DNA from: a virus
Lineage: Duplodnaviria > Heunggongvirae > Uroviricota > Caudoviricetes
Strand: one strand, 5' to 3'
Virus record (IMG/VR): IMGVR_UViG_3300026512_000004
Coordinates: 20,653 to 84,652 of that record
DNA length: 64,000 nt
In this document: positions 4,075 through 49,635 of the stretch, one piece after another
Numbering within the stretch: the first letter of the stretch is position 1
Layout of the letters: every line of letters begins with the position of its first letter
Notes under the pieces: generated by a model
What the model was told of the DNA's origin: nothing
The model's database searches: none
Seen by the model: the letters and a program-made list of their open reading frames with translations, nothing else
Translations under genes and position numbers: made by a program

Positions 4075-4123
4075 TCCTTAATGACTCTAAGCTAAAGGAC
4101 ATTTAACTAGGCGGAAGTCTATA

Positions 4124-4348: not shown

Positions 4349-4731
4349 AACAGTTGACAGATATTCTGGATAAGTATAAAGATAAGATAGAATGTGTTTC
4401 ACTATCAGGATCTACAATTGTACTAACTTTTGGAGATAACGTTGATGATATACCAAGTCATATACGTATTAAACTATTAAGTGGTGAAGACATTATTCGC
4501 TGTGTAGAATTGTTAGATAACATAGATTTGTTTGAGGGTACACTTACGATATGGTATAATGTGAAGCAGATAGACAGAGTTGAAGCAACTTGGAACGGCT
4601 ATATAATGTACTTTAGAAGTGGCAGGGCAGTTTTTCTCACAAGAGATCTTGTAGAGATGTATTTATATTATCATAAGAATACACGTTTAGCCCAATTTCT
4701 CCAACGTGCAATTTTGGAATATGAGTTGTGA
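4324..4731 (+). CDS. hypothetical protein
   Basis: 135-aa ORF. Confidence 0.4.
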   Translation: MQVASKSLEQLTDILDKYKDKIECVSLSGSTIVLTFGDNVDDIPSHIRIKLLSGEDIIRCVELLDNIDLFEGTLTIWYNVKQIDRVEATWNGYIMYFRSGRAVFLTRDLVEMYLYYHKNTRLAQFLQRAILEYEL

Positions 4732-4790
4732 TTAATATACAAAGAGTCACTTCTAACGAATTTAAAGACTATGTAGAGGTGTAATCGACT

Positions 4791-6065: not shown

Positions 6066-6086
6066 TTTATTGTCTCAGATTGAGCT

Positions 6087-6884
6087 ATGTTTGTAGAGAT
6101 TGTCACAGACGAGGATAGACAATTGTTTCGACAATTGGTTGCCAATGTCCCTACAATATTGGAAAATACGGGTGTAAGTGCAAGAAGACAACGTCAACTC
6201 GCAGTAAGGCGGGACGTGCATATTAAACCATATTGTTTCCATCCTGTTGTTTGTACTTGTTGTTTCTTAGTTTCAGATAAGTATCCTAAGCGATGCCTAT
6301 GTGATATAAATGTAGATATTGTATTCACATCATGTAAGTCAGATACTTATTTGTTCGGTATGGTTCATCGGACACCGTTTACTTGTACTTTACTTTTAAA
6401 TAGGTCTAAAAAAGTTTATAAGGATCCTAATTACCTCGATCTAATGAGATATATAAACAAGTCTGCGATAGATACATTATATACGAATGCAGATTCACCT
6501 GTTGTTACATATTCTGTAAATCCGGTTATCACCACATGTCCCAGTGCTCTCTTTCTTAAAACAGTTAGATTAACAAGGTTGATAGATATACTTGAAAAGT
6601 GGACAATCGGCAACACACCAAAAACCGGTTCTTGTGTATCCTTTTGGCGGGAAGATTTTGATGTACCAGACGATTATAAAATACCGGATAACTGGGAATA
6701 TTGGATTAAAGTAGCTGAGAAACTTAAGTTAATTAAGTATACAAGCTTAGATACACTAGCAATGCTTAAGTTACCAAAGTACGGAACAATAGGTACAATA
6801 TGTCACTATGATAATGCAAGAGCGTGGTTCTATTGGATGTCGAAGTTAGGTTTAGATCGTAAAGTCCTGCAAAAAGAATTGTAA
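6087..6884 (+). CDS. hypothetical Cys-rich protein
   Basis: 265 aa; CTCCF...CLCD...C cluster. Confidence 0.4.
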   Translation: MFVEIVTDEDRQLFRQLVANVPTILENTGVSARRQRQLAVRRDVHIKPYCFHPVVCTCCFLVSDKYPKRCLCDINVDIVFTSCKSDTYLFGMVHRTPFTCTLLLNRSKKVYKDPNYLDLMRYINKSAIDTLYTNADSPVVTYSVNPVITTCPSALFLKTVRLTRLIDILEKWTIGNTPKTGSCVSFWREDFDVPDDYKIPDNWEYWIKVAEKLKLIKYTSLDTLAMLKLPKYGTIGTICHYDNARAWFYWMSKLGLDRKVLQKEL

Positions 6885-6916
6885 GACAATAAAACTAGTT
6901 CAAAGGAGGGTTACAA

Positions 6917-7204
6917 ATGGTAAGTGTTAGTTCTAAAGTTACCCGTGCATTAACTAGTAGACTTGGTGATGGTAGAACAGTTGATAAGAATATCTACAAT
7001 TTAGTCCATGGTACACTTAGAGAATTGCTTAATATCAAAAACAAATCAAGCGAAGATATTACTGCAGCCAAAGTAGTAATGTTACGTCATAATGGATTTA
7101 TGCTACACATTACCTGGAAAGATGGAAGTACTTCAAGAATCCCATTTGCAATTGATCTTGAAAGAGAACCCGTATCTTTTAAGTACAAATGGACTAATGC
7201 ATAG
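6917..7204 (+). CDS. hypothetical protein
   Basis: 95 aa; preceded by AAACTAGTTCAAAGGAGGG RBS motif. Confidence 0.45.
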   Translation: MVSVSSKVTRALTSRLGDGRTVDKNIYNLVHGTLRELLNIKNKSSEDITAAKVVMLRHNGFMLHITWKDGSTSRIPFAIDLEREPVSFKYKWTNA

Positions 7205-7334
7205 TTAACTATAGGTAAATCTTAAACTCAAGAAGACACTGTGGTGGCAACATTACACTCGGGGATACTGTTCTTTTTGTTCTTTTCTGTAAACGAGTTT
7301 CTGCACAACATTAAATTCGATAAAGGTGTTCATT

Positions 7335-10300: not shown

Positions 10301-10535
10301 CGGAGGATGTGTTGTACATTTGTTCGTAGGTGAGGAGATACCCAGTGTTGAAGTAGTTAAGGAGTTAGTGAAATCAATCTGTTGGAATTTTAGATTGCCA
10401 TACTTCTCTATAACACCTACATTTTCAATATGTCCAATACATGGATATATACCTGGTAAACATGAGTTTTGTCCTTATCCCCATACGGAGAAACAGTTAG
10501 CTAAATGGGGTGTTGAAGTTGAAATCGATGAGTAG
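7335..10535 (+). CDS. nrdD: anaerobic ribonucleoside-triphosphate reductase (class III, NrdD) interrupted by two inteins
   Basis: N-terminal ATP-cone (VRKRKGTIVPFDRNRIQTAIEKA). Motifs shared with the T4/E. coli NrdD sequence as recalled from memory: HVHDL...CYCNGWDL, INMPRIAYLS, EATPAESCCYRLAKID, FTGGCVVHL. Likely start is the ATG at 7335 (SD AAAGGTG); the ORF track starts at GTG 7326. Confidence 0.8.
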   Translation: MERFVRKRKGTIVPFDRNRIQTAIEKAFNATGIKDDRTVAKATDIVVDKLERDFFRYGSIPHVEQIQDIVENTLMTLGCTEVAKAYILYREKRRQIRELRDAEVDAISLIDDYLQQVDWRVRENSNMTYSLQGLNFHISSSIVARYWLHRIYPERVRLAHINGDVHVHDLNSLSCYCNGWDLYDLLLRGFGGVHGKVESKPPKHFRTALGQLVNFMYTLQGECYSADTQVLTESGWKYFWNVSINDRIYTLNPETRQIELQKPIKLYEFNYDGELYHFEGDGFDLLVTPNHNMLVCDDSRRLTFIKAHEFGHEHSILCCTNGEIDKQSYSKASIIEKVPYKGKVYCLEVPNHTLCVRRNGKICWCGNSAGAVAVSNIDTLLAPFIRYDGLNYEQVKQAIQEFIFNMNVPTRVGFQTPFTNTTHDLVPPPTLKDNAVIIGGEPQDATYGEFQEEMNMFNRAFFEVMAEGDAKGRPFSFPIPTINITRDFDFNNPNLDPLWEATRRFGTPYWANYVNSDMKPEDARSMCLAPSTCVMIKDDKDEIHVGRIYELYNKFAGCSIEVPYNGQWVPARFVKVPYKQPFYRVKLSNGISLDFTADHKHVTIDGIKLTTELQPGDCLAWSTEITPWNGQVGDFVYGYKLAKEKGCLKHWFKLSTDALVGFLTYILTENNGAYGTYDKNQALRVGYIANVFGYSYKIVRIKIRRENGEEKDFWVTRIYRNDRYVFEDKDRFGYVKIVSIEKIRNRSGKAYCFEVYTNDHLFELPCGLITHNCCRLRLDNRELRKRGGGLFASAPLTGSINVVTINMPRIAYLSHSEKDFFERLEQVMEIAKLCHEVKRKVLEDFTEKGLYPYSCVYLDTIKQRTGSYWSNHFSTIGIVGMHEACLNFLGKPIYDPEAKKWCIKVLEFMREKILEFQEETGNLYNLEATPAESCCYRLAKIDKKKYPGIITSGTEEAPYYTNSVHLPVGYTDDIFEILEHQDDLMVLFTGGCVVHLFVGEEIPSVEVVKELVKSICWNFRLPYFSITPTFSICPIHGYIPGKHEFCPYPHTEKQLAKWGVEVEIDE
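8001..8435 (+). mobile_element. mini-intein 1 inside nrdD (about 145 aa)
   Basis: Block A CYSADTQVL directly after extein YTLQGE; block B LLVTPNHNML; block F VYCLEVPNHTLCVRRNG; C-terminal boundary ambiguous (...KICWCGN/S at 8433-8435 or ...KICW/C at 8426), no canonical HN. Confidence 0.55.
8913..9650 (+). mobile_element. intein 2 inside nrdD (246 aa)
   Basis: Block A CLAPSTCVMIKDD; block B ISLDFTADHKHVT; blocks F/G YCFEVYTNDHLFELPCGLITHN followed by +1 Cys (CCRLRL); possible degenerate endonuclease insert (LVGFLTYILTENNGAYG). Confidence 0.7.
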
Positions 10536-14069: not shown

Positions 14070-14132
14070 GTCAGAACTACAGATATTTAACTCTGATCTG
14101 TAGATAAAAACTAACTTAAAGGAGGTTGGCGC

Positions 14133-14441
14133 ATGGATGCCGTAGTTAAACCCAAAAGATCCCCTTCTAAACCACTTACACAGGAAGAGATAATTGCGAT
14201 AATTGGATTGGCTAAAAAGGGATTTACAAATGCCGAAATAGCAGCCAAAGTAGGTTGTACAAAAGCGCAGGTGCAGAGAGTTATATACGATTACAAAAAG
14301 ATTTGCAAAGAGAAAGGTATACCACATGGAATACCTGAAAGGAAGGCTACTAAGAACGGTTCTGTAATTAAGAGCACACTTAGTCAGATTGCTAATGGTT
14401 CTGTCAATTTGGACGACGTTCTCAAAAAGTTCGGACTTTAA
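14133..14441 (+). CDS. small helix-turn-helix DNA-binding protein
   Basis: GFTNAEIAAKVGCTKAQVQRVIYD HTH; strong SD AAAGGAGGT; 8-bp hairpin upstream (14078-14104). Confidence 0.5.
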   Translation: MDAVVKPKRSPSKPLTQEEIIAIIGLAKKGFTNAEIAAKVGCTKAQVQRVIYDYKKICKEKGIPHGIPERKATKNGSVIKSTLSQIANGSVNLDDVLKKFGL

Positions 14442-15217: not shown

Positions 15218-16513
15218 ATGAAGGCTATAAAACGTAAGAAACAGTCTGCTAGAACATACGAACTTCTACGACAAGTTACACAATATCTCACACGTCCCAA
15301 TTTACGCGAACGTCTTGATAATGTATTAGCAATAAATAAAGAACTAAAATTTGTAACACATAAACGTATTTGGTTGTATTTTCTGAAACGACCACAAATT
15401 ATCAAATGGGTTAACGAGTACATTAATGACAAGTATATTCATTATCAGCCAACAGAGGCATTAAAGACAGCTGCTTTTGTATGCGATCAACATAGACTAA
15501 CAAGCAACGATTTACATTATGCTCGCACACCAGAAATAGATGACACGATAGAAGAATTAAGACTACAGTTGACATCCGGACTTGAACTGAGGAACTCCTC
15601 TGATTTTTCAACGTTACAGTATTTACTCAATAATGTTGTCAAAGTTAAAACATTAGAGGAATTTATACAAGAAATACTACAAGATGTGGAAAATTGCAGG
15701 TCTAAATGTCCACTTGGCCAATTACAACGTCCCGTTGTTGTGTTAGATGGCAATATTGAATATGTTGGACCTGTAGATGTGATGTTTATTGGCTTGAATC
15801 CTGGTACTGAAGAGGCTAAACAGGGTAAACCGTTTGTTGGTCTTACCGGTATTAAACTGCGTGAATTTGTGGAAAATAACTTAGGTCATTTGAAGTACAT
15901 TTTTACTAATTGTATCTTGTGTTCTACAAGGAATGAAAGCGAAATCCCGGAGATACAGAAAGTAATAACACTATGTAGACAACATGTTACTAAGATTGTC
16001 CAAACATTTCAACCAAAGATAATCGTATTAGTTGGCGATAAAGCGTGTTCATCTTTTGGTATCACTGGTAAAATAAGTCAGATATCTGGAACTCTTATTA
16101 ATGATAAATACTTTCCATTGATACACCCTTCTGCTGTATCTAGGAACCCTCATTGGAAAGATTTGTGGGAAAGAAGTCTGGATAACTTGTTAATGGTTTT
16201 GGGTATTGAGAAAAAGAACAAGGTAGAGATTAAAGGCGGCAGTACAGTTACTTGGGATGATGTACGTGAAATGCAGTTAACCTTGTTCGACCTAAAGATA
16301 TTAGAAGGTCAAACTGCTATTTACATATTCTTGGATAACGAGGGTAAAAAGTATTACTTAGTTGAAGAACCGAAGCACAGGATATATATTAAGCGTGGTG
16401 AATTGCCGTTTCTAGCCTTAGTTGAAGATGAGTTCGATCAGTATGTTGATTTAACACCACGAGAGAAACATTTTCTTGTTGCCGAACTAAGAAAACGTAT
16501 TGCGCAGATTTGA
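15218..16513 (+). CDS. UDG-superfamily (family-4-like, Fe-S) domain protein with N- and C-terminal extensions
   Basis: Residues about 160-330 align motif by motif with family-4 UDGs. Fe-S Cys motifs: CRSKCPL, NCILC, LCRQH, ACSSF. Motif A: VMFIGLNPGTEEAKQGKPFVGLTGIKL, versus GEGPGeeEdxxGrPFvGkaG. Motif B: FPLIHPSAVSRNP. The catalytic-motif residue is Asn (GLNPG), as in MUG/TDG. The start overlaps the queE stop. Confidence 0.7.
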   Translation: MKAIKRKKQSARTYELLRQVTQYLTRPNLRERLDNVLAINKELKFVTHKRIWLYFLKRPQIIKWVNEYINDKYIHYQPTEALKTAAFVCDQHRLTSNDLHYARTPEIDDTIEELRLQLTSGLELRNSSDFSTLQYLLNNVVKVKTLEEFIQEILQDVENCRSKCPLGQLQRPVVVLDGNIEYVGPVDVMFIGLNPGTEEAKQGKPFVGLTGIKLREFVENNLGHLKYIFTNCILCSTRNESEIPEIQKVITLCRQHVTKIVQTFQPKIIVLVGDKACSSFGITGKISQISGTLINDKYFPLIHPSAVSRNPHWKDLWERSLDNLLMVLGIEKKNKVEIKGGSTVTWDDVREMQLTLFDLKILEGQTAIYIFLDNEGKKYYLVEEPKHRIYIKRGELPFLALVEDEFDQYVDLTPREKHFLVAELRKRIAQI

Positions 16514-22878: not shown

Positions 22879-22907
22879 CAGTCCAAAAGTTCAATAGATA
22901 TTAACAA

Positions 22908-23777
22908 TTGGTCATGAACATACCAGCAGACTTTTACACACGAGTCGAAGATCCACGCTTTCTACATTATGTTCTATACGGTGATACTGACAGTTTGTTT
23001 TTGCATGTACCTTTTGTACACTACGAAACGACTAAAGAAGCAATTGAGAAAGCACAAAAAATCGCAAAGCAAATTAACGACAGAATCCAAGCGTACTTAA
23101 ATGTTGAAATGCTACCTAAAATGGGTGTCGACCCTAAATATAATTTTACTGACTTTAAAACAGAGCTAGTAATTAAGTCGTTAATGCTTCTCGAGGTCAA
23201 GAAAAATTATGCATTGAAAATAATTGCTGAAAAAGACGAGGTATTTTCTAGTCCAAAGATTAAGTACACGGGATTACCTATTGTTAAAGCAGATGTTGCT
23301 GCCTTAGCTAAACAATTCTTAAAAGAACTTGTAGACAACATTGTCTTAAATGAAGAAATCCCTCTGGAACAGAAACTGGATCATTGTGAACGTATACGTG
23401 AAGTGTATAAAAAACGTACAAAAGAAGCGTGCGATAACTTCCAAATACACCTAATAGGCAAACCTGCTAAGATGTCTAATACGGAAAGTAATGCTCATCA
23501 CATACAGGCAATGAAACGTTGGAACACGTGGTGGAGTAATGACTTCAAGTTAGGTACATCTGGTTATTTAGTGTACACAGATAGAGGTGAACTTGCGGTA
23601 CCATTTTGGTATGACGAACACATGGTCAAGAGAGCATTTGAAAAAATGCAACTGAAACTCGATATTAATGCTATTTGGAACAAATTTATCTACATCACGA
23701 TTACACAACGTATTATCAAACTATGTGCAAAATATTGCCAAGATCCGCTAAAACGTGTAAACTATGACGTACAATGA
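22908..23777 (+). CDS. family-B DNA polymerase, C-terminal fragment (palm motif C + thumb)
   Basis: YGDTDSLFL (motif C) 24 aa from N-terminus, KKNYALK (KKRY motif), GLPIVKAD; begins right after a terminator; TTG 22908 or ATG 22914. Confidence 0.8.
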   Translation: MVMNIPADFYTRVEDPRFLHYVLYGDTDSLFLHVPFVHYETTKEAIEKAQKIAKQINDRIQAYLNVEMLPKMGVDPKYNFTDFKTELVIKSLMLLEVKKNYALKIIAEKDEVFSSPKIKYTGLPIVKADVAALAKQFLKELVDNIVLNEEIPLEQKLDHCERIREVYKKRTKEACDNFQIHLIGKPAKMSNTESNAHHIQAMKRWNTWWSNDFKLGTSGYLVYTDRGELAVPFWYDEHMVKRAFEKMQLKLDINAIWNKFIYITITQRIIKLCAKYCQDPLKRVNYDVQ

Positions 23778-25707
23778 GTTAATACGTGAGATACGTGAAG
23801 GTCGATTAAACTACTACAATATCTACAACGCAATTTCAACACACACTTACTTAACCACAAAGTACTATAACGAATTCACACATGATACAATCGATAAACC
23901 ACAAAAAGTATCTGTTTTGTATTTAGATATTGAGGTTTATATACCAAGTAAAAACAGAAGCCCTGATCCGCAAAAAGATCCTATTTGTGCTTTCTCTATT
24001 GTCTACGAAAGAAACGCCTATCTTTTTGGATTAATACCACCTGGTAAAGCACGTGAAGAATTACCTAGTAAAGAAGAGTTGGAAGAGTTAGTCGCAAGAC
24101 ATGTTGGTAAAAAGTATAGTATAGAGGTAAGATACTACGATAATGACGCAGATTTACTAAAAGGTGTTTGGCGAAAGATACGTGAATTAGACCCCTGTTT
24201 GTTGAGTGGATGGAACATAGACGGATTTGACATACCTTATATTATTGAAAGGATGCAAGTGTTATTACCAAATGAATGGCAGCGGGTAATTTCACGTTTT
24301 GGACGTGTCACTAAAGAACAGGGATATTGGCAGATTCCAGAATATTCACGATATGACTTATATTACTTCTACAAGCCTAGAGATGAAGGTGGTATGAATT
24401 ATGGATCAAAAGAACCGAGTTACACTTTAGATTTCATTGCTAGTAAACTGCTTAATGTTACTAAAGTTCACCATGAAACTGACTTACATACAATGTTTGA
24501 AGAGAAGACACGCGAGTTATTTGTCTATAACGTAGTGGATACTATCCTCTGCCAAATGTTAGATGAAAAGCTCAAATTTTGGGATTTGCACAATACAGTA
24601 AGACGTAAAATGGGTGTAGGATTTTCGGCATCATTACGTGGTTGGTCTGTTATGTATGAGGCTTATGTGATTAAAACATTGAAAGACAAGAAAATTAGAT
24701 TTGGTTATCTGGAAGAACTAGATTTTGAAGTCGACCAGTATAGTAAACAAGATGTGAGAAAAGTAACGCGTCGATATATGGGTGCTTACGTCAAAGAACC
24801 TCGTGAGGGTATTTATATTGATGGATTATTGATGGATTTAGATGCTTCACGTCTATATCCGTCTATGATTATGCAGTTTAACATATCGTTTGATACTTTG
24901 TACGGCATAATTATAGATCCTGTATGTTATAACGCAATGACTTCTCTAAGTCAAATGATGAACTCTACTGGTGAAAGAAGACAACAAATTGCTGCGAAAA
25001 TTAAACTAGCTATTGAGAAGACATTTGAACAGATTTTCGGAACCACTTCAAAAGGCAAAACCTCTTACCGTAAGGAAGATCGTGCTTTTCTGACAGTTAT
25101 TTCTGCTATTGTGGATAGACTCTGTGAGAGTGGATTATCGTTTCAAGAAATATGCACACCTACAACACCAAAAGGTTATGTGTATTTGAGGCGATACTTT
25201 ATACCACTTTTAGATATGATTAAGTATGTAAAATATAGTACTCTTGAGTATAATACATTCGCATACGATTACGTATTCGATGAACCTAAGGTGAACAGCG
25301 TATACGTTCTTATTAACTGTGATAGTAAACCGCTAAAAATAGACAAATGGAGCGTCGAATATCTGAAGAAAAGGTTGGACGAAGACTTAGTTTTAACATG
25401 TACTGGTTGTTTGTTTTATAAACATGACGTTAAACGCGGATTGTTCTTCGAGTTCTTACAAGAATTGGGGAAAATGCGTAAAGATTTCGAAAGGAAAGCA
25501 TTACAAGTCGACGACGAAGAACTTAAAAACATATACAGAAGAAATGCAAAAACGTGTAAGGTTATTATGAACACGTGTTACGGGTTGTACGGACTACCAA
25601 CGTTTACATTTTCTAATCAGTGGTTAGCGTCTACAATTACATTACAAGGTAGAATAAGTGTTAAATTAGCACAGTTAATTGCGGATCAAGTTATCAGTGA
25701 ACTATGA
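23764..25707 (+). CDS. family-B DNA polymerase, N-terminal fragment (3'-5' exonuclease + palm motifs A/B)
   Basis: Exo I VLYLDIEV, Exo II SGWNIDGFDIPYI, Exo III YNVVDT; motif A DLDASRLYPSMIM; motif B KVIMNTCYGLYG...TITLQGR; ORF ends about 20 aa after motif B; overlaps upstream ORF by 14 nt. Confidence 0.85.
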   Translation: MTYNELIREIREGRLNYYNIYNAISTHTYLTTKYYNEFTHDTIDKPQKVSVLYLDIEVYIPSKNRSPDPQKDPICAFSIVYERNAYLFGLIPPGKAREELPSKEELEELVARHVGKKYSIEVRYYDNDADLLKGVWRKIRELDPCLLSGWNIDGFDIPYIIERMQVLLPNEWQRVISRFGRVTKEQGYWQIPEYSRYDLYYFYKPRDEGGMNYGSKEPSYTLDFIASKLLNVTKVHHETDLHTMFEEKTRELFVYNVVDTILCQMLDEKLKFWDLHNTVRRKMGVGFSASLRGWSVMYEAYVIKTLKDKKIRFGYLEELDFEVDQYSKQDVRKVTRRYMGAYVKEPREGIYIDGLLMDLDASRLYPSMIMQFNISFDTLYGIIIDPVCYNAMTSLSQMMNSTGERRQQIAAKIKLAIEKTFEQIFGTTSKGKTSYRKEDRAFLTVISAIVDRLCESGLSFQEICTPTTPKGYVYLRRYFIPLLDMIKYVKYSTLEYNTFAYDYVFDEPKVNSVYVLINCDSKPLKIDKWSVEYLKKRLDEDLVLTCTGCLFYKHDVKRGLFFEFLQELGKMRKDFERKALQVDDEELKNIYRRNAKTCKVIMNTCYGLYGLPTFTFSNQWLASTITLQGRISVKLAQLIADQVISEL

Positions 25708-26723
25708 GCATGGAACATTCAACGATTAATACACGACCAAATGATATAATAACTTGTTCTCAAGAATCGTGTGTAGACTTTTTGTACGCTTCATATGTTC
25801 ACAGATACGGATTATCTTGTGCGTACGATTATGCTATATACAAGTTGAAAGTAGATGAGTTCTTACGCGGTTTAGGTAGTTGTGTAAAAATGATATACGT
25901 GGGTTTCAAATACGGTTTTGGTATTGTTGATGTACATAATGTTGTATTTGGCGTAGTATGGTCATCTCGTGGTATTTCTTTATATGCTCAATCATCTGCC
26001 GAGGTTAATCGCGTCCTAGAAATACTACACCCTTATTTGGAGACAGTTCGTGATAATGTCGTTGTATTTAAAGTCTGGTCTTATGCGCAGGGATTATCTT
26101 ATGAACACATAGACGTTACAACTGATGAATTACTTATGAATATAGATGTAAATTTGTTTAAATATGCTGGGGCGGATGTAGATGACTTACTGAATTTCTT
26201 CAAGTCCAGGGAATCACTGTTATTAATAACAGGCATACCTGGTACGGGTAAAAGCAAACTTTGTGCAGCACTGATTGCGTTAGCGAGACAACAAGGATTA
26301 ATTGGTGATTATATAGAATTTGTCAAAGGACGCGAAGTTATTAAAGCCTTATTGTCGCATCCGGACAACTTCTTGAAGCCAAAAATTTGGTTGTTCGACG
26401 ATCTAGACGTAATTAGTGGTGAATTTAGTAGGGATACTTCAGATGAACTTGCACAGGACTTCATATCCATGCTGTTGACAATGAGTGACGGTGTCATACC
26501 CCAAAAATCTAAATTTATCGTAACAACAAATATACCGTTGAAAGCAATTGATGAAGCATTGTTACGACCTGGTCGTTTGTACGAATCCGTCGAGTTGAAA
26601 AAGTTCAATGCGAGAAATGCTGGGTTAGATATTGATAAAGAAGTTACTTTGGCAGAATTTATGGCATTACGCGAAAAACAACGTATTGATAGACATCGTC
26701 CAACTAGGAAGATTGGATTTTAG
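25704..26723 (+). CDS. P-loop ATPase (DnaC/IstB-like AAA+ candidate)
   Basis: LLITGIPGTGKSKLCAALIALA Walker A; IWLFDDLDVISG Walker B (DDLG-like); 170-aa N-terminal extension. Confidence 0.45.
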   Translation: MSMEHSTINTRPNDIITCSQESCVDFLYASYVHRYGLSCAYDYAIYKLKVDEFLRGLGSCVKMIYVGFKYGFGIVDVHNVVFGVVWSSRGISLYAQSSAEVNRVLEILHPYLETVRDNVVVFKVWSYAQGLSYEHIDVTTDELLMNIDVNLFKYAGADVDDLLNFFKSRESLLLITGIPGTGKSKLCAALIALARQQGLIGDYIEFVKGREVIKALLSHPDNFLKPKIWLFDDLDVISGEFSRDTSDELAQDFISMLLTMSDGVIPQKSKFIVTTNIPLKAIDEALLRPGRLYESVELKKFNARNAGLDIDKEVTLAEFMALREKQRIDRHRPTRKIGF

Positions 26724-26787: not shown

Positions 26788-27540
26788 ATGGAGAAAGTAC
26801 GTTGCGGAAAATGTGGTAGATATGTTCCTAAGAGTTCTTGTCTTCCGTATCGGACTAAAAGAGGCAAATATGCAGGCAGACCTAGTTGGATCTGTTTTGA
26901 GTGTTACATTACATGCGAAGATGATATAGAACTTCTGACACCAGATTGGAATAAGATACAAAATAAGATACAAGAACTTATAGATATTTTACATGAAGAA
27001 TTAGGTTGGTTTAATAGTGAAGAATTAAAAAATACCGCTAGAAGAATTGCTAATTTCTACAAAGAATGGGCAAGTAATCAATCGTTTAAGTTTACCACGT
27101 TTGAACGTGATTTAGTTGAAAGTAAATTAGACCAGCTAATAGTATATCGGGATATCAAGTTCTTTAGTATGTGTAGTCATCATATGTTGCCATTCTATGG
27201 TGTTTGTCATGTTGCTTACTTACCCCGTGACGAAGTTGCTGGAGCATCTAAAATTGCCAGAATGGTAGTTGCTAAAGCCAGTAAACCACAAATACAGGAA
27301 AAACTGACAGATGAGATTTGTAGAGAATTGTTCGATACACTTAAAGCTAAGTTCGTTATGGTAGTAATGGAGGCGACACATTTATGTATGGTTTGTAGAG
27401 GGATAAAACAGTATGGCAGTAAGATGGTAACATCTTCTATTAGATACGATAAAGAAGCACAGGAGTCAGGTGAGATAGATTGGAAAACCTTGAAAGAGGA
27501 AAGTTTAATTTTGTTCAGGGGATTGAGACAAGACTTTTAA
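26788..27540 (+). CDS. folE: GTP cyclohydrolase I (FolE) with N-terminal Cys4 zinc-ribbon extension
   Basis: FFSMCSHHMLPFYGVCHVAYLPRDEVAGASKIARMV...QIQEKLTDEI matches FolE CEHHLVPF...GLSKLARIV...QVQERLT; N-terminal CGKCGR...CFEC. Confidence 0.8.
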   Translation: MEKVRCGKCGRYVPKSSCLPYRTKRGKYAGRPSWICFECYITCEDDIELLTPDWNKIQNKIQELIDILHEELGWFNSEELKNTARRIANFYKEWASNQSFKFTTFERDLVESKLDQLIVYRDIKFFSMCSHHMLPFYGVCHVAYLPRDEVAGASKIARMVVAKASKPQIQEKLTDEICRELFDTLKAKFVMVVMEATHLCMVCRGIKQYGSKMVTSSIRYDKEAQESGEIDWKTLKEESLILFRGLRQDF

Positions 27541-27770: not shown

Positions 27771-28076
27771 ATGCGGTTTGTTCGACGTTCAACATTGGCT
27801 GTAACCAAACGTACAATACGTACTCGACGGATACCAGAAGTTTTACGATCTGATGCTCGTTGTTCTCTACAACAATATCGTTATCTACTTACTGTACTCG
27901 ACAAGTACAAACACGCGTTTATGATAAATACTGCATGTGATAACTGGATTATGTGTTTAACGTCTGATCCTATGGATGCGTTTTACTGGGGTGTTACGCC
28001 ACAAAATGAAATTTGGGCCTCTTGTACGATGAATATTATGGATAAATTTACTCTAGGAATGCAAACAGAACTATAG
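27771..28076 (+). CDS. hypothetical protein
   Basis: 101 aa ORF. Confidence 0.4.
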   Translation: MRFVRRSTLAVTKRTIRTRRIPEVLRSDARCSLQQYRYLLTVLDKYKHAFMINTACDNWIMCLTSDPMDAFYWGVTPQNEIWASCTMNIMDKFTLGMQTEL

Positions 28077-28111
28077 ATATTTCAACTAAACGAAGTAGAG
28101 TGAGGTTTAGA

Positions 28112-28996: not shown

Positions 28997-29821
28997 ATGC
29001 TGCAAGAGTGGTTAAAGGATTTAGTACTAAATATGATAAAAAATGATAGTCTTGTTATTGATAAATGGTATACTACCAGTTGGAATGGTACTTTGCCACT
29101 ACATGATGTTTCAGATTGTATTAGTATATTTCCAATTGACAAATTCACAATTAAGAAAGTAGACAACGTTAATTTGGAGTGGCTAATAAACAAAATAACA
29201 CATCCAAATGTGTACGGTATCTTAATTGCTGATGACTCTAAACTACAATATGTAAATCCCTTAACTGATCTCTATTTCTACCCGGATAGAATTTTACAAA
29301 GGAGATATCAAACCTGTTACATCTACTATTTGAAGAATGAAATTAAAGCAGATAAAACAAGTATGCAAATTGCTAATTCTATCGTAGAGTTTATGAAAAC
29401 ATTACTATACAAAGAAGATAAGCTAAAAACACATCAATTTGATCCAAATACACCGCTTAAGAAATTAATAGAGGAAGAAATTGAACTCTTATCTGATGAT
29501 GAGAATGTTGTTCTTCCTGTGTCTATTACCGTATGGAGTGGTATAGTTACACCCTGGTATAGCATGTATATGATTCGGAGAGAAAAAGATAAATATCGCG
29601 GGTACAGAATATGTGGATATTTGACAGGTAACATTTCTTCAGAGGATCATGAGGTTTGTTTCGGCAGTAGAATGCCAACGAACAAATCAGATATTATAGA
29701 TATCATGAGAAAACAAAACTACGACAGTGTCTATTTCACACGCGTTTTACCTGAAAACTGGGATACAATCTTAGCAGCATTTAAAATCGCAGCTTTGAAA
29801 ATTTTGGAAGATGCGGTATAA
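28997..29821 (+). CDS. hypothetical protein
   Basis: 274 aa; HPNV and later ...EDHEVCFG; no firm assignment. Confidence 0.4.
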   Translation: MLQEWLKDLVLNMIKNDSLVIDKWYTTSWNGTLPLHDVSDCISIFPIDKFTIKKVDNVNLEWLINKITHPNVYGILIADDSKLQYVNPLTDLYFYPDRILQRRYQTCYIYYLKNEIKADKTSMQIANSIVEFMKTLLYKEDKLKTHQFDPNTPLKKLIEEEIELLSDDENVVLPVSITVWSGIVTPWYSMYMIRREKDKYRGYRICGYLTGNISSEDHEVCFGSRMPTNKSDIIDIMRKQNYDSVYFTRVLPENWDTILAAFKIAALKILEDAV

Positions 29822-30707
29822 CGTCTCTGCTATTACAAAAGAGATACAACTCGCTAGGAAAATACAACGTGTCAAAGATGAATACAGTGAGGACAGAGTT
29901 ATAATATGTGTTCAGAAAGATACAGTATTAGACGAAATACAGAACTTGGTAGAACCGAGGGTTGGCGATGCGGAGTTTCAAGTACATGGACACACACTAC
30001 ACATACCGATAGACCGTATAGATGTAATAATACCTATTTATTACTTCAGTATTCCACAGACGTGTTCACATTCGAACATCGAATATTCGTTAGATGATCT
30101 TAGAGTGAGGATACAAGATACAAAAGAGTTAGCTAAAGAATATGTAAAAAAACTAGATTTAGGCCTTACATGCAGATTGATAGTCGATGGTATCTCTATA
30201 CACAAACATCCTGGTCGATTTGGATTTTCATCGACTGATCTGTCAAAAACATTAGATCCCGCGAGCGTAGTTTACAGATCTGAAAAAGCGGATGACAAAA
30301 TACAAGTTGACTGTATTCTCGCAGAAGGAGAGATATATACTGCAGAAGGAAAAGTTGTAAATGTTAGACCTACAGATGATGATAACGTCGAAGGTACTTA
30401 TATGTGGTATCCTACTATAAATGCTACGTATTGTGGACAATATCACCCAATTCTGGGCAAGTTGGAAGATGTATACGGTAAATATAACTTAACATTTTAT
30501 CGATTAAAACCTACAAGATACGCACGACTCACACAAATTCTTGACTTTATAAGTGAAATCATAGATAAAATAGATCCGATAATTGACGTAAATCCAGAGG
30601 ATTACGATAGGAAGACATATAGCTATCTGTATGATGACGATGATGACGATGAGGACACAATATTTCCAAAACCAAAAACTATCAAAAGGACCTCCTTCAA
30701 TCTATAG
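29811..30707 (+). CDS. hypothetical protein with poly-Asp tail
   Basis: 298 aa; VHGHTLHIPIDRID; C-terminal DDDDDDED; stop codon lies inside repeat copy 1. Confidence 0.4.
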   Translation: MRYNVSAITKEIQLARKIQRVKDEYSEDRVIICVQKDTVLDEIQNLVEPRVGDAEFQVHGHTLHIPIDRIDVIIPIYYFSIPQTCSHSNIEYSLDDLRVRIQDTKELAKEYVKKLDLGLTCRLIVDGISIHKHPGRFGFSSTDLSKTLDPASVVYRSEKADDKIQVDCILAEGEIYTAEGKVVNVRPTDDDNVEGTYMWYPTINATYCGQYHPILGKLEDVYGKYNLTFYRLKPTRYARLTQILDFISEIIDKIDPIIDVNPEDYDRKTYSYLYDDDDDDEDTIFPKPKTIKRTSFNL

Positions 30708-30946
30708 GAACACATTTCCTATAGATTTCAGAAGTCCTGCGCCAGGACGACCCTGGGCAACCCCTCGCAGTCCCATGGACAATCTGTCCAGAGGGGACTG
30801 GAGGCTTATCAGATTGCGGAAGACAATTGGATTATGTAGTTTTACTATAACACACAGGTGAGATTTATAGTCTTACATACAACGGCTACACGAGATAAAG
30901 ATATGAGACTTTATTAAACAACAACTAGTTCAAAGGAGGTTGGCGT
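30686..30946 (+). repeat. structured intergenic module, copy 1 (about 260 nt)
   Basis: Shares near-identical blocks with 41121-41356: GGACCTCCTTCAATCTATAGG, an 88-nt core at 30735-30822 that contains two hairpins, then TGTAGTTTTACTAT...ACATACAACGGCTACACGAGAT...AACTAGTTCAAAGGAGGT ending at the ATG. Confidence 0.7.
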
Positions 30947-31111
30947 ATGGCTGGAGGACTTAGAGACTTAATTAAACAAAAGATTACTGAAATCCTCGAA
31001 GAAGAACTCAAGGAAGCTCTTGAAGAGGTGCTTACTGAAGAGTCTAGCGAACCCGAAGAGGTAGAGTGTACACCTGCTAAGGGTGATGCAGCTTCTGGAT
31101 TTGTAGCCTAA
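30947..31111 (+). CDS. small acidic protein (54 aa)
   Basis: Strong SD AAAGGAGGT 7 nt upstream; MAGGLRDLIKQKITEILEEELKEALEEVLTEESSEPEEVECTPAKGDAASGFVA; followed by a terminator. Confidence 0.5.
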   Translation: MAGGLRDLIKQKITEILEEELKEALEEVLTEESSEPEEVECTPAKGDAASGFVA

Positions 31112-32493: not shown

Positions 32494-32527
32494 CAGACGG
32501 GCTTTTATGCCCGTCGTTCTGTTTTGG
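32494..32527 (+). terminator. rho-independent terminator
   Basis: GACGGGC-TTTTAT-GCCCGTC followed by GTTCTGTTTTGG. Confidence 0.7.
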
Positions 32528-32742
32528 TAAATGGAACTATAGATATTTTCGGTAAACTTTACAAAAGAAGAACTCAAAGTATACTTGATAATCTTTATAC
32601 TTTGCTGGTAAAGTGGTAGATGGAGATACTCTCGGTATAGATTTGAGATTTAATTGTCGGCTAACTGTACGCACCCGTATGAAAGGTTGTGATACAGGAC
32701 AATAAACCTATATTAAAATTGAGCACTCTAACAATAGGAGCA

Positions 32743-34070: not shown

Positions 34071-34100
34071 AAAAGGGGTCCCTATAGGACCCCTTTTTTG
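34071..34100. terminator. bidirectional terminator between convergent genes
   Basis: AAAAGGGGTCC-CTAT-AGGACCCCTTTTTTG: perfect hairpin flanked by A-run and T-run. Confidence 0.7.
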
Positions 34101-41089: not shown

Positions 41090-41120
41090 TTTCTGTAGTA
41101 TAGATATTTATGAAAAATCT

Positions 41121-41356
41121 GAAAGGACCTCCTTCAATCTATAGGTTCCAGAGGTCCTGCGCCAGGACGACCCTGGGCGATCCCTCGTAGTCCCATGGAC
41201 AATCTGTCCAGAGGGGACTGGAGGCTTGTCAGATTACGGAAGTGTAGTTTTACTATGATGCATATGAACATGATTCAGTTTTACATACAACGACTATACG
41301 AGATGAAAAATGTGGAACTTTACTAAACAATAACTAGTTTAAAGGAGGTACGAACT
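41121..41356 (+). repeat. structured intergenic module, copy 2 (about 235 nt)
   Basis: Direct repeat of 30686-30946. The core at 41155-41242 differs from copy 1 only at a few positions, including a C-to-U change that keeps the stem as a G-U wobble. Copy 2 lacks the 25-nt hairpin insert of copy 1 and ends with AACTAGTTTAAAGGAGGT plus an ATG. Confidence 0.7.
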
Positions 41357-42163
41357 ATGCGAACTAGTACTCACTACATCACTACACCAGACAAAAACAG
41401 GTTTCTAGGGTTGATAGTGTACGAGAAGGATAATAATACAAGGGTACTTAGAATTGTAGGTTCAGCAGTACTAGAAAATGGTAAATTAATATCCGACTTA
41501 AATGACCTACCTGTTAGGACAACTTTGAATAGAGTCAAAAAGATAGCAATGTATGCACCTATCAGGTATGTAGTGGATGAGAAGATCCAAATCTTTCCAT
41601 TTGACAAAGTAAATGAAGAGGTTGAATTAGAAGGCGAGGATGGCAAATTATTTATAGACTATTGTATCCAGCAGGATATGTCAACAGGTAAATCGGAGAT
41701 TATTTCTATTCGCGCGTATCAAATGGAAGAAGATGTTAAAACATGGTACTTACTGAATGCTATAGACACAGATATAGTCAGAGATAGATTGAAAGTTTTC
41801 GCCGTAGATGTCGAACTAGATATGTTTCCGCCTCTGGTAATCTGTGATCCGGTGGAAAAAGTTCTCTATGTCGAAATTGGTCATAATGGCTATATAGGTA
41901 GTTTTCACGGTAGGAAATTAGAAACAATTACTAGAGCATTTGCGGTATGGCCGGAGTTTATGTGCAAGCTGACAGGAACAATTACTAGAGGCTCACACAC
42001 GCCTGGTGCTCAAGGAGGATTCTATGGAAAACTGTATACGGGATTAGTTAATCATCTAGACGATTGGACACCTGGTCTATATAAGTTATATCGCGTGATG
42101 GATGATAGAGTAGAAATTAGTAGAATAGCTGAACGAATAGAGGTTATAGAGGAAGAAGAGTAA
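41357..42163 (+). CDS. hypothetical protein (strongly translated, late-region island)
   Basis: 268 aa; strong SD; flanked by repeat module and bidirectional terminator. Confidence 0.5.
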   Translation: MRTSTHYITTPDKNRFLGLIVYEKDNNTRVLRIVGSAVLENGKLISDLNDLPVRTTLNRVKKIAMYAPIRYVVDEKIQIFPFDKVNEEVELEGEDGKLFIDYCIQQDMSTGKSEIISIRAYQMEEDVKTWYLLNAIDTDIVRDRLKVFAVDVELDMFPPLVICDPVEKVLYVEIGHNGYIGSFHGRKLETITRAFAVWPEFMCKLTGTITRGSHTPGAQGGFYGKLYTGLVNHLDDWTPGLYKLYRVMDDRVEISRIAERIEVIEEEE

Positions 42164-42172
42164 GTCATCTAA

Positions 42173-42200
42173 GAGGGGTCCTACGGGCCCCTTTTTTTGT
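42173..42200. terminator. bidirectional terminator between convergent genes
   Basis: AGGGGTCC-TAC-GGGCCCCTTTTTTTG. Confidence 0.6.
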
Positions 42201-46194: not shown

Positions 46195-46217
46195 GATTTA
46201 AGCCTCCGTGTTTAAAG

Positions 46218-47921
46218 TTAGAGTTCGGCGTCAGCTACAACTTTAAATGGATTAGTAGTGTACTGACTCCCACCACCTCCAACCAAATCAAAAGCACTAG
46301 CATCTCCAACATTAAGAACGACATAGGTTCGCGAAGATACAATAGAAATACTCCCTGGTATTTGCCAACTACCAGCTCTGAATATCAAAACATTTTCATA
46401 CTTTATTGTAGGAGTAACTCTTTTCACAACTTTAAATGGTAAATAAACTTTTTCATTGTACTTATCGCAATCATCACTGTAACTTCCTTCCAAAACTTCA
46501 TAATACCTCATACATCTCATAAGTTGAATCTCATAAGGAACATACTCAAACTCTGTTGCTCTATCGCCCTCTTCCAACTGAACCCTTCTTATCCTAAACC
46601 AATCACCTTTCTGCCACTGATTTGTTCCTGTTAAGAAGTGGTAGTCTACACCGGTATGCAAACCTTCACTTGGTGCTTCATAGTTTTTATCGTTAGAGCC
46701 GATTATAAGTTCAAATCCTACATTCTCGTCATTTTCAAATCTCTTAGGGAATTCAGACAAGTCAAAAGTGAACTCAAATCTTTGAAACTCTCCATCTCCA
46801 TTATAGGTAAACTTTTTGATATAACTGTCAGTAACTCCACGAGTACAGTTTCTAAACGATAAAGAGTAATCTCCATTCTTATTTGATGCAAACTCAAACG
46901 AAAGTGTCACCTTCTTTCCTTGAATAGCTAAGTCGTATAAGTGTTGACCTTCAAAGCGATAAACAAATGAATGAATATGGCGATTGGAATTTGAAGTATC
47001 TTCGTCTTCAATCTTGTAGTAAAGAAAGTAAGTAGGAGACTCTTTGTAGTGATTGGATTCGGTGTAGAGAATCTTGATTTCGTCGTCTGTTAATGCACGG
47101 TTGAAGATGCGGACTTGGTCGATGAAGCCCTTAAAATAACTAGCACTTTCTACATGAGAACCGTCATAGTTATACATAACCCCCATATACCATTGAGCTA
47201 CATCAGCTAAGGTATTACTATTGATGTCTCTCTCATACAGCTTATTTCCGTCCAAATATAGGGTAGCAAGAGATGGTTGTAACTTCAGTATAACATTGTG
47301 CCATACTCCATCAGATACAAGGGTACGGGAATAATAGTAGTCTTCAACACCTAAGCCTAAGAAAGTGCCTATATAACCATCTTTTATTTCAATCCCAAAG
47401 TCATTGCTAGCGTCGCCTGCGGTTGCGAAACCTATTAGAGTTGGGTTATTCCAATATGTTGATCCATGAGCTGTTTGAGTCGTTTTAAACCATAAACTTA
47501 TTGAAGCGGGTAAACTCGTTAGAGGAGACGGTATTGCCATATAACTACTCCCATCAAACTTCGCACATTGACCAAACTTACCTATATCATACTGTTCATT
47601 TCCGCTCCAAGTTCCGTTGTAGTTTCCTGACAAATCATTAGCATTCCCGTCAAAAGTATATGTTGCAATGCAAGAACCATCACCGAAAATATCCAAAGTA
47701 TTAACCAAACTGCCTTCATCTAGAGCATAAACCTTATCTCTCCGTAAACCCACCGTATATCCCTCTACATTAGAAAATACTCTATCTATTGTATACCTAG
47801 CCTCATTCTCTAACCTAAAACTCTCACCCCTTTGAGCTACAGAGAAGTCTCCATTGATTATTCTATTTTTGAATTGACCGACTTCCTTTATAAATCTTGC
47901 ATCTAACTTATTCATCTCCAC
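46218..47921 (-). CDS. tail fibre / receptor-binding protein with LamG (concanavalin-like) domain
   Basis: LamG signature (WHNVILKL...LYLDGNKLYE...QVRIFNRALTDDEIKILY); N-terminus KNRIINGDFSVAQRG and C-terminal EFEYVPYEIQLMRCMRYYEV...DAEL shared with 48490-49635. Confidence 0.6.
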   Translation of the reverse strand: MEMNKLDARFIKEVGQFKNRIINGDFSVAQRGESFRLENEARYTIDRVFSNVEGYTVGLRRDKVYALDEGSLVNTLDIFGDGSCIATYTFDGNANDLSGNYNGTWSGNEQYDIGKFGQCAKFDGSSYMAIPSPLTSLPASISLWFKTTQTAHGSTYWNNPTLIGFATAGDASNDFGIEIKDGYIGTFLGLGVEDYYYSRTLVSDGVWHNVILKLQPSLATLYLDGNKLYERDINSNTLADVAQWYMGVMYNYDGSHVESASYFKGFIDQVRIFNRALTDDEIKILYTESNHYKESPTYFLYYKIEDEDTSNSNRHIHSFVYRFEGQHLYDLAIQGKKVTLSFEFASNKNGDYSLSFRNCTRGVTDSYIKKFTYNGDGEFQRFEFTFDLSEFPKRFENDENVGFELIIGSNDKNYEAPSEGLHTGVDYHFLTGTNQWQKGDWFRIRRVQLEEGDRATEFEYVPYEIQLMRCMRYYEVLEGSYSDDCDKYNEKVYLPFKVVKRVTPTIKYENVLIFRAGSWQIPGSISIVSSRTYVVLNVGDASAFDLVGGGGSQYTTNPFKVVADAEL

Positions 47922-48465: not shown

Positions 48466-48489
48466 CGCTTGTAACCTCCTTTGTTTGGT

Positions 48490-49635
48490 TTAGAGTTCGG
48501 CGTCAAAAATTATATATCCGTCTTGTGCAACCTCTCTACAAAATCCAAACAAAGTAGCAAAATTTGTCCTGGTAGACGTAGTTGTAGCGTGGAATTGAAA
48601 CCTATATGAGTATGTCGATGATACACCAACAAGGGAGTCTATATATACAGGTCCTCCACTATACTCTACTACAAGTCTATTTAAATCAGGACCATAAGAC
48701 ATAGAAGGCGGAACCCTCTTAGGCACTTTGAAGAAATAAGTAACCCAGCCACAATCGCCAGAATACCACTTTCCGTTCCCTATCGGAGTATCACTCCCTT
48801 CATCTCTTAGCACCTCGCAATACCTCATACACCTCATAAGTTGAATTTCATATGGAACATACTCAAACTCAGTCGCAACTTCACCTTCTTCTAGCTGCAA
48901 CTGAGCTATCTCTATGTAATTACCAGCTTGAGCTGCCCAGTTGGTATAATCTGAAACACAGTAAGGGTCTATACCACTAGAATTCTTTCCCACCCACTGA
49001 TTTTCCTGTCCCGGGTCGCACCTATTACTATCACCAATAAGTCCGATGTTCAGAACAAATCCGCGGTTATTATCGTTTCGTGGAGGTTGAAGCCAGTTGT
49101 GATCCAACGGTATAGTAACTGTAACCCTCTGTACTTCATCATTTCCGTTGCTAACAAAACTAGTCACATAATTTTCATATTTTGACTCGTCAGGTATACT
49201 AGTTTGATTGTGTAAACTTATGGATATTTTACCTGTTACATTAGACCTCCATAAAAACGATATTGTTACACTTCCCTTTTTTATAGCAATATCGTATAAA
49301 TGAGAGCCTTCGAAATGGTAGGTAAACGGATCCCAACATCGAGTATTAGAACCATCCCAAGATAAGTTTTCTGGTGGTGTATCTACTACAACTTTATACG
49401 AAGGCAACCCATTTAGACTTCCTCTGGATACGGTAAATTTACCACCAGCCCTTACATTAGATGCCCAAATTCTATCCGCACTTTTATATCCTTGATCTAT
49501 AGTTAACGCATCGGCGTCACTACTATAACTAGCACTAGTTCCTCTCTGCCATATCGCAAAGTCTCCGTTAATTATCCTGTTCTTAAACAACTTGTTATAT
49601 TGTGTATCGTTTAGAAACGCATATCTAGTTCCCAT
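48490..49635 (-). CDS. tail fibre / receptor-binding protein (paralog of 46218-47921 lacking LamG insert)
   Basis: Shares KNRIINGDFAIWQRG N-terminus, FEGSHLYDIAI block and EFEYVPYEIQLMRCMRYCEV...DAEL C-terminus; DNA near-identical over the shared blocks. Confidence 0.6.
   Translation of the reverse strand: MGTRYAFLNDTQYNKLFKNRIINGDFAIWQRGTSASYSSDADALTIDQGYKSADRIWASNVRAGGKFTVSRGSLNGLPSYKVVVDTPPENLSWDGSNTRCWDPFTYHFEGSHLYDIAIKKGSVTISFLWRSNVTGKISISLHNQTSIPDESKYENYVTSFVSNGNDEVQRVTVTIPLDHNWLQPPRNDNNRGFVLNIGLIGDSNRCDPGQENQWVGKNSSGIDPYCVSDYTNWAAQAGNYIEIAQLQLEEGEVATEFEYVPYEIQLMRCMRYCEVLRDEGSDTPIGNGKWYSGDCGWVTYFFKVPKRVPPSMSYGPDLNRLVVEYSGGPVYIDSLVGVSSTYSYRFQFHATTTSTRTNFATLFGFCREVAQDGYIIFDAEL

Follow-up and report, generated by a model that had tools for sequence, protein, structure and literature searches.

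Paired repeat modules in a large phage genome as probable gene-less derivatives of an IS607-family transposon with a TnpB guide-RNA-like scaffold

Why does a structured, apparently non-coding module of 220–250 nt occur twice in direct orientation in a phage genome, each time next to a strong ribosome-binding site (RBS)? This question is raised by a 64,000-nt stretch of the Caudoviricetes record IMGVR_UViG_3300026512_000004 (the whole of this stretch is referred to here as the window), in which copy 1 lies near 30.7 kb and copy 2 near 41.1 kb. The original prediction for this locus favored a plus-strand 5' untranslated region (UTR) with an RNA operator, or a small RNA, and offered a miniature mobile element as a further role. 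Our analysis indicates that the two modules are very probably internally deleted, non-autonomous derivatives of the IS607 transposon family, similar to miniature inverted-repeat transposable elements (MITEs) or palindrome-associated transposable elements (PATEs), in which the outer ~93 nt of the left end (LE) are joined to the last ~130–155 nt of the transposon. On the evidence of the sequence comparisons given below, the GC-rich core corresponds to the last ~45 tnpB codons together with the right end (RE), that is, the scaffold of a TnpB guide RNA (omega RNA or right-element RNA, reRNA), and the AT-rich half to the LE.

A repeat search recovered the two direct copies as a 104-nt block (30719-30822 versus 41139-41242, 92% identity) and a second block (30869-30899 versus 41277-41307, 87% identity), and alignment confirmed them. 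Similarity extends from (AA)AGGACCTCC to AAAGGAGG(T), 7–8 nt before the start codons at 30947 and 41357, giving an element with the ends GGACCTCC...AAAGGAGG. The 21-nt identical 5' block GGACCTCCTTCAATCTATAGG and a 35-nt segment of the core each have exactly two occurrences, with none in shuffled sequences. The hairpins named in the original prediction are present and its 88-nt core is indeed shared, at an identity of ~94% (five differences) in place of the stated ~93%; all differences between the copies are transitions. A 25-nt hairpin insert ascribed to copy 1 turned out to be 17 nt long (30709-30725), and copy 1 contains a further 12 nt (about 30823-30835) that are missing from copy 2. The overlap of copy 1 with the stop codon of the upstream gene (TAG, 30705-30707) was correctly described. 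The termini GGACCTCCTTCAA... and ...TTCAAAGGAGG(T) form a perfect 8-bp inverted repeat (~12/16 overall), the 5' block ACCTCCTT being the exact complement of the Shine-Dalgarno (SD) sequence AAGGAGGT at the opposite end.

The Rfam scan that had been proposed together with the prediction returned no family for the window at gathering thresholds, and only chance microRNA and snoRNA matches for the two copies at E ≤ 10. Comparison by blastn with 50,697 phage records revealed no similarity, and nothing was found in scans of IMG/VR (two exact core patterns, the 268-aa protein encoded downstream of copy 2, and TnpB) or of GTDB genomes (core pattern and TnpB). Further copies came from metagenomic data: a scan with a mixed exact/RY (purine/pyrimidine) core pattern yielded three new copies in one Joint Genome Institute (JGI) metagenome, on contigs L006, L007, and L008, which are 81–95% identical to the window copies. 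The L006 copy lies between an Hsp20 gene and a dCMP deaminase gene, in that order, the L007 copy in a divergent region, and the L008 copy after a QueD-like gene. In total, the other contigs carry three full and two short copies, all beside unrelated genes. The short form in L008 (1487-1590) comprises the 5' block and the AT-rich half without the GC-rich core and stands directly behind a recurring TATAGATATTT box, while that in L007 (9500-9600; 9542-9588) is more degraded. Both short derivatives keep only the RE tip (~21 nt, degenerate in L007) and the LE module, and they too stand just before start codons. Further assemblies of this phage show no sequence difference, but their contigs are interrupted within the copies: L002 begins within copy 2, the start of L014 likewise falls inside a copy, and the ENA contig k141_399410 begins 147 nt upstream of the ATG at 30947 (~30800). 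The sequence could be extended beyond the window by ~10 kb on the right (L003) and not on the left, and the added part contained no further copies.

In L006, which is identical to L010 6626-17196, the element equals that of the window except that 1949 bp intervene between ...TGTAGTTTTAC and TAACAC.... In antisense orientation this insert encodes a 217-aa protein with Resolvase and MerR helix-turn-helix (HTH) domains and a protein with OrfB_IS605 and Cas12f1-like_TNB domains, which is the gene pair of IS607. The TnpA domains were recognized in both full-length relatives, L006/L010 and L009, with E = 3e-21 for Resolvase and E = 4e-6 for MerR, and TnpB is encoded at 3376-4785 in L006 (P0012) and at 710-2110 in L009 (P0013), so that both genes of the autonomous IS607 form, which the window lacks, are present on these contigs. 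L010 is a 62-kb contig from the same ENA sample; it carries genes for phage RNA-polymerase subunits, ThyX, and dCMP deaminase, and shares GC content and promoter box with the window. L009 is a 2.1-kb contig from a different sample with its own TnpA and a TnpB that is 51% identical to that of L006.

The TnpB reading frame of L006 continues past the junction through the GC-rich core to a stop in CTATAGG, 15 nt from the end of the element. The alignment with TnpB of L009 spans this junction (...NVKLHNPIVFRNLTSLRSPL versus ...NVKLHNPVVFRDLQGLRPPL), and more distant TnpB homologues also keep the segment that crosses it. The RuvC residues D210, E344, and D394 are invariant among the TnpB homologues. 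A profile of the group (four sequences) matched Cas12f/TnpB structures, whereas a phmmer search of the PDB with the single TnpB sequence gave no match. The TnpB clade of L006 and L009 has the D-E-D triad, but the interval from E344 to D394 contains no CxxC zinc-finger cysteines. Its frame is open through the whole of the putative omega-RNA scaffold, while amino-acid conservation ends ~30 residues ahead of the stop codon. A distant member of the TnpB group (33% identity), not accompanied by tnpA, was seen at 3001-4236 of L011 (NCBI GCA_043956535.1, JBINNZ010005672.1), just downstream of a 1226-aa family-B DNA polymerase on an apparently viral-like contig.

When the TnpB tail (aa 422–470) was compared with the window by tblastn, both copies matched on the minus strand: copy 1 at 30845-30702 with 78% identity (E = 4e-16) and copy 2 at 41253-41140 with 71% identity (E = 7e-12). 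In nhmmer searches over the copies, E values ranged from 1e-38 to 1e-45 for the RE and from 1e-20 to 1e-28 for the LE, and homology to the element extends to the LE tip and RE of L009. The window modules thus combine homology to both transposon ends with deletion of the internal genes, and presence/absence polymorphism together with several copies at non-homologous loci, as is characteristic of a non-autonomous IS607 derivative, adds to this. The deletion junction is the same in all four miniature copies, suggesting that one deletion arose and then spread.

Direct evidence for insertion came from an allele without the element, found by way of the 54-aa protein encoded downstream of copy 1. In L013, which stems from another run, the flanks are ~95% identical to those in the window and the element is missing exactly between AAAAGG and GGGT, inside the SD sequence of the downstream gene. 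The empty site reads ...CTATCAAAAGG|GGGTGCAGTATGG... (or ...CTATCAAAAGG|GGGTGCAGTATGGCTGGAGG...), so that AAAAGG|GGGT stands opposite AAAAGG-ACCTCC...AAAGGAGG-T in the occupied allele. The upstream open reading frame (ORF) of L013 overlaps the 54-aa gene by 17 nt, exactly as we had predicted beforehand from removal of the element at the GG boundaries. Insertion has swapped the last codons of the upstream gene for six codons and a stop from the RE tip, parted two coupled genes, and provided the downstream gene with a canonical AAAGGAGG site. Next to the right end, the filled and empty alleles agree over at least 20 nt of flank. Insertion polymorphism between strains that are ~95% identical implies recent activity. 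For copy 2, an empty allele was sought and not found. With the TnpB homology and the empty site in L013, the role of a miniature mobile element, offered earlier among others, is the one that stands: the locus carries a mobile element, not an RNA dedicated to regulation.

The choice of target is uniform. The LE tip lies 5–15 nt from a start codon, with the element antisense to the gene concerned, in both window copies, in L006, in both copies of L007 and of L008, and in L009, and these neighboring genes are unrelated from copy to copy (e.g., dCMP deaminase and the QueD neighbor). On the gene strand, GG borders each copy at both ends (GG...GG), there is no longer target duplication, and the crossover can be placed only to within the GG; in copy 1, the GG dinucleotides at 30688-30689 and 30938-30939 could be part of the element or of the target. 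Removal of the element at GG regenerates RBSs of the GGAGG, GGGGG, or GGTGG type. The reported fusion to a strong RBS is explained by insertion into the GG runs of SD sequences, with the LE rebuilding the site; in copy 1, the outer LE tip ...TTCAAAGGAGG supplies or rebuilds the SD sequence of gene 30947. These GG termini agree with what is known of the family: in Clostridium botulinum, IS607 has a strict GG requirement with TGGG as target and target-adjacent motif (TAM) (PMC10690162), and IS607 elements mostly terminate in GG, with AGGAG or GAGGG as TAMs (PMC13565253). On the tnpB-sense strand of our elements, the LE flank is (T/A)ACC or CCCC and the scaffold ends in ...GGUCC, the G-rich motif being on the opposite strand.

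Two short matches elsewhere in the window concern the same end of the element. The last 17 nt of the left end (AACTAGTTCAAAGGAGG) recur exactly at 6893-6909, upstream of gene 6917, and a 48-nt stretch with SD sequence, spacer, and start (AAAGGAGGTTGGCGYATGG, 14101-14148) is common to genes 14133 and 30947. These may reflect a shared RBS context or old left-end remnants.

The omega RNA of such elements is located at the 3' end of tnpB and the RE (PMC10690162, PMC13565253), and conserved structure was found over precisely this region, from the tnpB 3' end to the RE boundary. On the 3' side of tnpB, the DNA of L009 is organized like the core and retains the joining motifs CCCA, GAGGGG, AUCGC, and CGCAGGA, while the stems differ throughout: CCAGG/CCUGG is replaced by CUUCCGC/GCGGAAG with a GAGA tetraloop on the tnpB strand, AGUCCC/GGGACU by GGCCCC/GGGGCC, UGGACA/UGUCCA by UUCC/GGAA, and GGACCUC/GAGGUCC by AUCUCUC/GAGAGAU. 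All four helices (S1–S4), which overlap the tnpB 3' end, are thus rebuilt and kept between elements whose TnpBs are 51% identical. In a count covering the four helices in six sequences, the tnpB-sense strand shows 161 Watson–Crick pairs, 11 G-U pairs, and two mismatches, versus 161, two, and 11, respectively, on the plus strand of the window. Among the five phage copies, 6/56 paired columns are variable compared with 15/73 unpaired ones. The loop of the CCAGG/CCTGG hairpin differs in the three metagenomic copies (ACGAC, GTGGT, and ACAACC). A comparison of minimum free energies did not discriminate between the strands. These substitution patterns show that the structure of the core is real and constrained, and because of its position and the G-U strand bias it is best read as a TnpB omega-RNA (reRNA) scaffold; minus-strand omega RNAs are likewise predicted for the miniature copies. 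For the C-to-U change that had been taken as a wobble-preserving sign of selection on RNA structure, the position on the probable functional strand is a bulge or internal loop in the wider family. Rfam scans of L006 and L009 left the element unmatched, RAGATH-18 included, and neither there nor in the scans of the window and its two copies was a group I intron detected on either strand. Several candidates were considered and dropped, namely guanidine-II (ACGR loops), ZTP, a group I intron, a retron, and a T4 gene-60-like bypass; there was no model match, loops were not conserved, there was no reverse transcriptase, and the landing codon is followed by a stop.

The role put first in the original prediction deserves a closer look. 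As a plus-strand cis-regulatory leader (a riboswitch, protein operator, processing site, or thermosensor), the module would control translation through an anti-SD block, ACCUCCUU, that sequesters the SD sequence AAGGAGGU around a core binding a ligand or protein. Such a leader would be consistent with the perfect complementarity of both segments over 8–9 bp, which RNAalifold pairs with each other, with a long-range pairing probability of 0.6–0.75 in L007 and L008, with plus-strand folds that are stabler than shuffles (z = -5.4 and -2.8), and with the start of copy 2 ~13 nt after a promoter-like box, where it forms the whole 5' UTR. However, the pairing probability is ~0 in both window copies when 30 nt of coding sequence are included, and the changes in the stems give A-C mismatches on the plus strand, where the 11 mismatches stand against two on the minus strand. 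Moreover, the core matches the 3' end of tnpB read antisense, the element is dispensable at the same locus in the sister strain L013, the downstream genes are unrelated, the hairpin loops are not conserved, and no Rfam family is matched. We therefore regard a leader function as very unlikely; the anti-SD/SD complementarity and the apparent leader structure are accounted for by the 8-bp terminal inverted repeat together with a scaffold read backwards, and an effect on downstream expression may arise as a side effect. It is scarcely credible that the module is instead a recombination sequence for the exchange of phage modules, copied together with its neighbors by homologous recombination and not transposed. 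In several contigs it does mark the border between genes, and its end coincides with the gene start, but the flanking genes are unrelated from copy to copy, which argues against module exchange, both ends are homologous to a transposon encoding a serine recombinase, and the empty site shows a clean insertion into a GG run with unchanged neighbors.

Possible, if on the unlikely side, is that the copies are inert fossils with IS607 ends which are no longer mobilized and give no functional omega RNA, having been spread or kept by recombination and hitch-hiking; their present effect would be confined to repeated DNA (a possible deletion substrate, 30.9-41.1 kb) and extra 5'-UTR sequence. The lack of a transposase or TnpB in the window fits this, as do the indels in the terminal hairpin, the 12-nt deletion within the tnpB relic, and the more degraded versions in L008 and L007. 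In contrast, the same sample contains an intact tnpA–tnpB copy whose RuvC triad is conserved, both termini are retained even in the shortest derivatives, closely related strains differ by the insertion, and paired columns are half as variable as unpaired ones, with changes that are mostly G-U-compatible on the tnpB-sense strand. Several observations also weigh against our assignment to a mobile IS607 derivative with an omega RNA. By tblastn, the 64-kb window shows no other likeness to TnpA or TnpB, and only the last ~42–49 tnpB codons remain. The right-end tip of L009 is lost at the contig end, and the full-length copy of L006/L010 is no more than probably from the same or a sister phage genome, as judged from sample, GC content, and promoter motif. 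The strand evidence from the five phage copies is modest, since among six variable pairs pairing is kept only on the tnpB strand in four and only on the plus strand in two, and the omega RNA is without an Rfam model, RAGATH-18 included. Two features are non-canonical for IS607: the crossover dinucleotide is CC on the tnpB-sense strand, so that the presumed TAM is C-rich (ACCTCC/ACCCCC; ACCYCC) and not G-rich, and the element has an 8-bp terminal inverted repeat (ACCTCCTT/AAGGAGGT), whereas IS607 elements are reported to lack such repeats (PMC6188088).

For the miniature IS607 derivatives, we propose that the serine recombinase TnpA of a full-length copy would move them in trans, through a circular double-stranded intermediate, into the GG of GGAGG-type RBSs. 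The left-end tip (...TTCAAAGGA plus GG) would restore the site, and the downstream gene would stay translatable. Minus-strand transcripts from the left end would give omega RNAs whose guide is the flank beside ...GGAGGUCC; on this strand, the RE module of copy 1 terminates in ...GAAGGAGGTCC. The predicted guide of copy 1, UUUUGAUAGUUUUUGGUUUU, matches the empty allele over at least 20 nt, and given the identity of the flanks in filled and empty alleles, the copy-1 omega RNA would match the empty site. TnpB carrying such guides would cut genomes without the insertion, driving retention or homing; this use of omega RNAs has been shown for other IS605/IS607 elements and proposed for PATEs that bear omega RNAs (PMC10055086). 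One might go further and imagine the miniature copies as a distributed, CRISPR-array-like set of solo guide-RNA genes, each driven by its left-end promoter and taking the guide from its own flank, with one master TnpB loading all of them and cutting co-infecting sister phages, which would amount to an RNA-guided multi-locus gene drive or competitor exclusion in a virulent phage; we consider this extension unlikely. A drive of this kind would be tolerable since each insertion targets and then rebuilds an RBS. Deletion between the direct copies (30.9-41.1 kb) is also possible.

The element has several known relatives. With the IS607 family (IS607 of Helicobacter pylori and the C. botulinum elements of Zedaveinyte et al., PMC10690162), it shares a MerR-like HTH serine-recombinase TnpA followed by an overlapping tnpB, a scaffold formed by the tnpB 3' end and the right end, GG insertion in a G-rich SD-like motif, and a crossover dinucleotide common to element and target, beyond which the target is not duplicated. 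It differs in that the window copies are gene-less, that GG lies opposite to the tnpB strand with a presumed C-rich TAM, and that an 8-bp terminal inverted repeat is present; its TnpB is without zinc-finger cysteines and has a frame open through the scaffold, there is no intron, and the host replicon is a large myovirus. Gene-less PATEs carrying omega RNAs for use in trans have been described for IS605 (PMC10055086). Like these PATEs and MITE-like IS200/IS605 elements (Meers et al., PMC10055086), the window copies consist of LE, RE, and an omega-RNA scaffold, occur in several copies, and presumably depend on TnpA and TnpB in trans; theirs, however, derive from IS605 with a Y1 transposase ('peel and paste', end hairpins, AT-rich TAMs), whereas ours come from a serine-recombinase IS607 element in a phage. 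The reRNAs of IS607 TnpBs derived from RAGATH-18 (PMC11061315) are also structured RNAs directly 3' of tnpB that serve as guide scaffolds, but the Rfam model is unmatched here at E ≤ 10 and helices and motifs are different. IStrons (IS605/IS607 plus a group I intron) likewise limit the damage to interrupted genes; they do so by splicing from the mRNA, while the window element inserts into an RBS and rebuilds it. Finally, the homing endonuclease genes Seg and Mob of T4-like phages are selfish, strain-variable insertions expected to spread by cutting the empty allele in co-infection, as here; recognition by the window element would instead be RNA-guided (TnpB plus omega RNA), and its miniature copies are without a nuclease.

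These comparisons remove a false lead, as the locus holds no new riboswitch or operator, and they illustrate that an omega-RNA scaffold read backwards can resemble a structured leader. They document a previously unmodelled IS607/TnpB lineage in a large phage, with no Rfam model, a nearest TnpB that is 51% identical, no zinc finger, a reversed orientation of crossover and TAM, and restoration of RBSs. Antisense insertion into SD GG runs with restoration would be a neat way of life for a transposon in packed phage operons. The data set, which includes one master copy, guide-only miniatures in several copies, and a naturally occurring pair of filled and empty alleles, offers a directly testable case of RNA-guided homing between phage genomes.

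Table 1. Coordinates of the two copies, their parts, and adjacent features in the window.
Feature	Position	Strand	Basis
Copy 1, probable non-autonomous IS607-like element, LE to RE on the minus strand	30690..30939	-	Copy alignment; precisely this stretch is absent in the empty-site allele L013
Copy 1 RE module: relic of the last ~49 tnpB codons and omega-RNA-like scaffold (helices S1–S4)	30690..30845	-	tblastn of TnpB tail; compensatory stems in L009
17-nt segment, not in copy 2, lengthening the RE terminal hairpin; variants in L006 and L007	30709..30725	-	Alignments, fold
Copy 1 LE module: outer ~93 nt of the transposon left end	30846..30939	-	Contiguous with tnpA-proximal LE in L006; nhmmer E = 2.7e-28
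Copy 2 of the element; subfamily without the 17-nt and 12-nt segments, like L007	41127..41348	-	Repeat search, alignments
Copy 2 RE module: tnpB 3' relic and omega-RNA-like scaffold	41127..41253	-	tblastn of TnpB tail; nhmmer E = 1.6e-39
Copy 2 LE module, ending AAAGGAGG 8 nt upstream of ATG 41357	41254..41348	-	Copy alignment, nhmmer
Upstream gene, 298 aa; final six codons and stop codon from the RE tip of the element	29811..30707	+	ORF list
Target gene of copy 1: 54-aa acidic protein, no known family	30947..31111	+	ORF list
Target gene of copy 2: 268-aa orphan protein	41357..42163	+	ORF list
Phage promoter-like box TATAGATATTT just upstream of copy 2	41099..41109	+	Recurring motif, putative function

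The surroundings of the two copies differ. Copy 2 occupies a divergent intergenic region between a minus-strand gene starting at 41089 and the plus-strand gene starting at 41357, for whose product no homologue was found. A TATAGATATTT box ends 13 nt before AAGGACC at copy 2, and because of this promoter-like box just upstream the copy would lie in the 5' UTR of gene 41357 and make up essentially all of it. Copy 1 is located inside an operon and has no such box. The box, in the form (gaAC)TATAGATATTT, recurs upstream of plus-strand genes at 77-87, 14078-14088, 26979-26989, 28072-28082, and 32538-32548, and also at 22895; it is found in L006, L008 (1468-1480), and L007 (~3950 and ~10330) as well, often right after terminators. 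It looks like a phage-specific promoter, and the multisubunit phage RNA polymerase encoded on L010 may be what recognizes it. A scan for sigma-70 promoters and terminators around both copies gave nothing informative, and no tRNA or tmRNA was found.

The phage genome itself is that of an isolated large myovirus with 37% GC, whose products include an intein-containing NrdD, topoisomerase II, a split PolB, and a sheath protein of 956 aa. The nearest sheath homologues are 42–47% identical and located on short contigs, and a synteny-based collection of homologues was abandoned on these grounds. In NrdD (anaerobic ribonucleotide reductase, 1069 aa, 7326-10535), the intein splicing domain lies at aa ~550–775. 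The family-B DNA polymerase is encoded by two overlapping ORFs, 23764-25707 (647 aa) and 25704-26723 (339 aa), which could be due to a frameshift, a split gene, or a sequencing error. On L010, split multisubunit RNA-polymerase beta/beta'-like proteins, ThyX, and dNK are encoded at 2795-7576 and 15369-16367, as in jumbo-phage-type genomes, and a tandem array of ~100-aa paralogous genes with 72–87% DNA identity extends over 12.8–15.2 kb. Further direct repeats of the window, 81% identical (46495-46580 versus 48812-48897, plus 46203-46233 versus 48475-48505), are located at the ends of adjacent tail-fibre-like genes (Laminin_G_3, DUF4376 neighbors), which suggests duplicated fibre/chaperone cassettes. 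One type of strong, GC-rich terminator hairpin (GGGGTCC-loop-GGACCCC, then a run of T) was observed at 3127-3147, 32497-32525, 34075-34100, and 42173-42200, in two cases between convergent genes, and these hairpins are trailed by a similar motif, TTTGT(T)T(G/T)(T/C)(C/T)AGGACTG.

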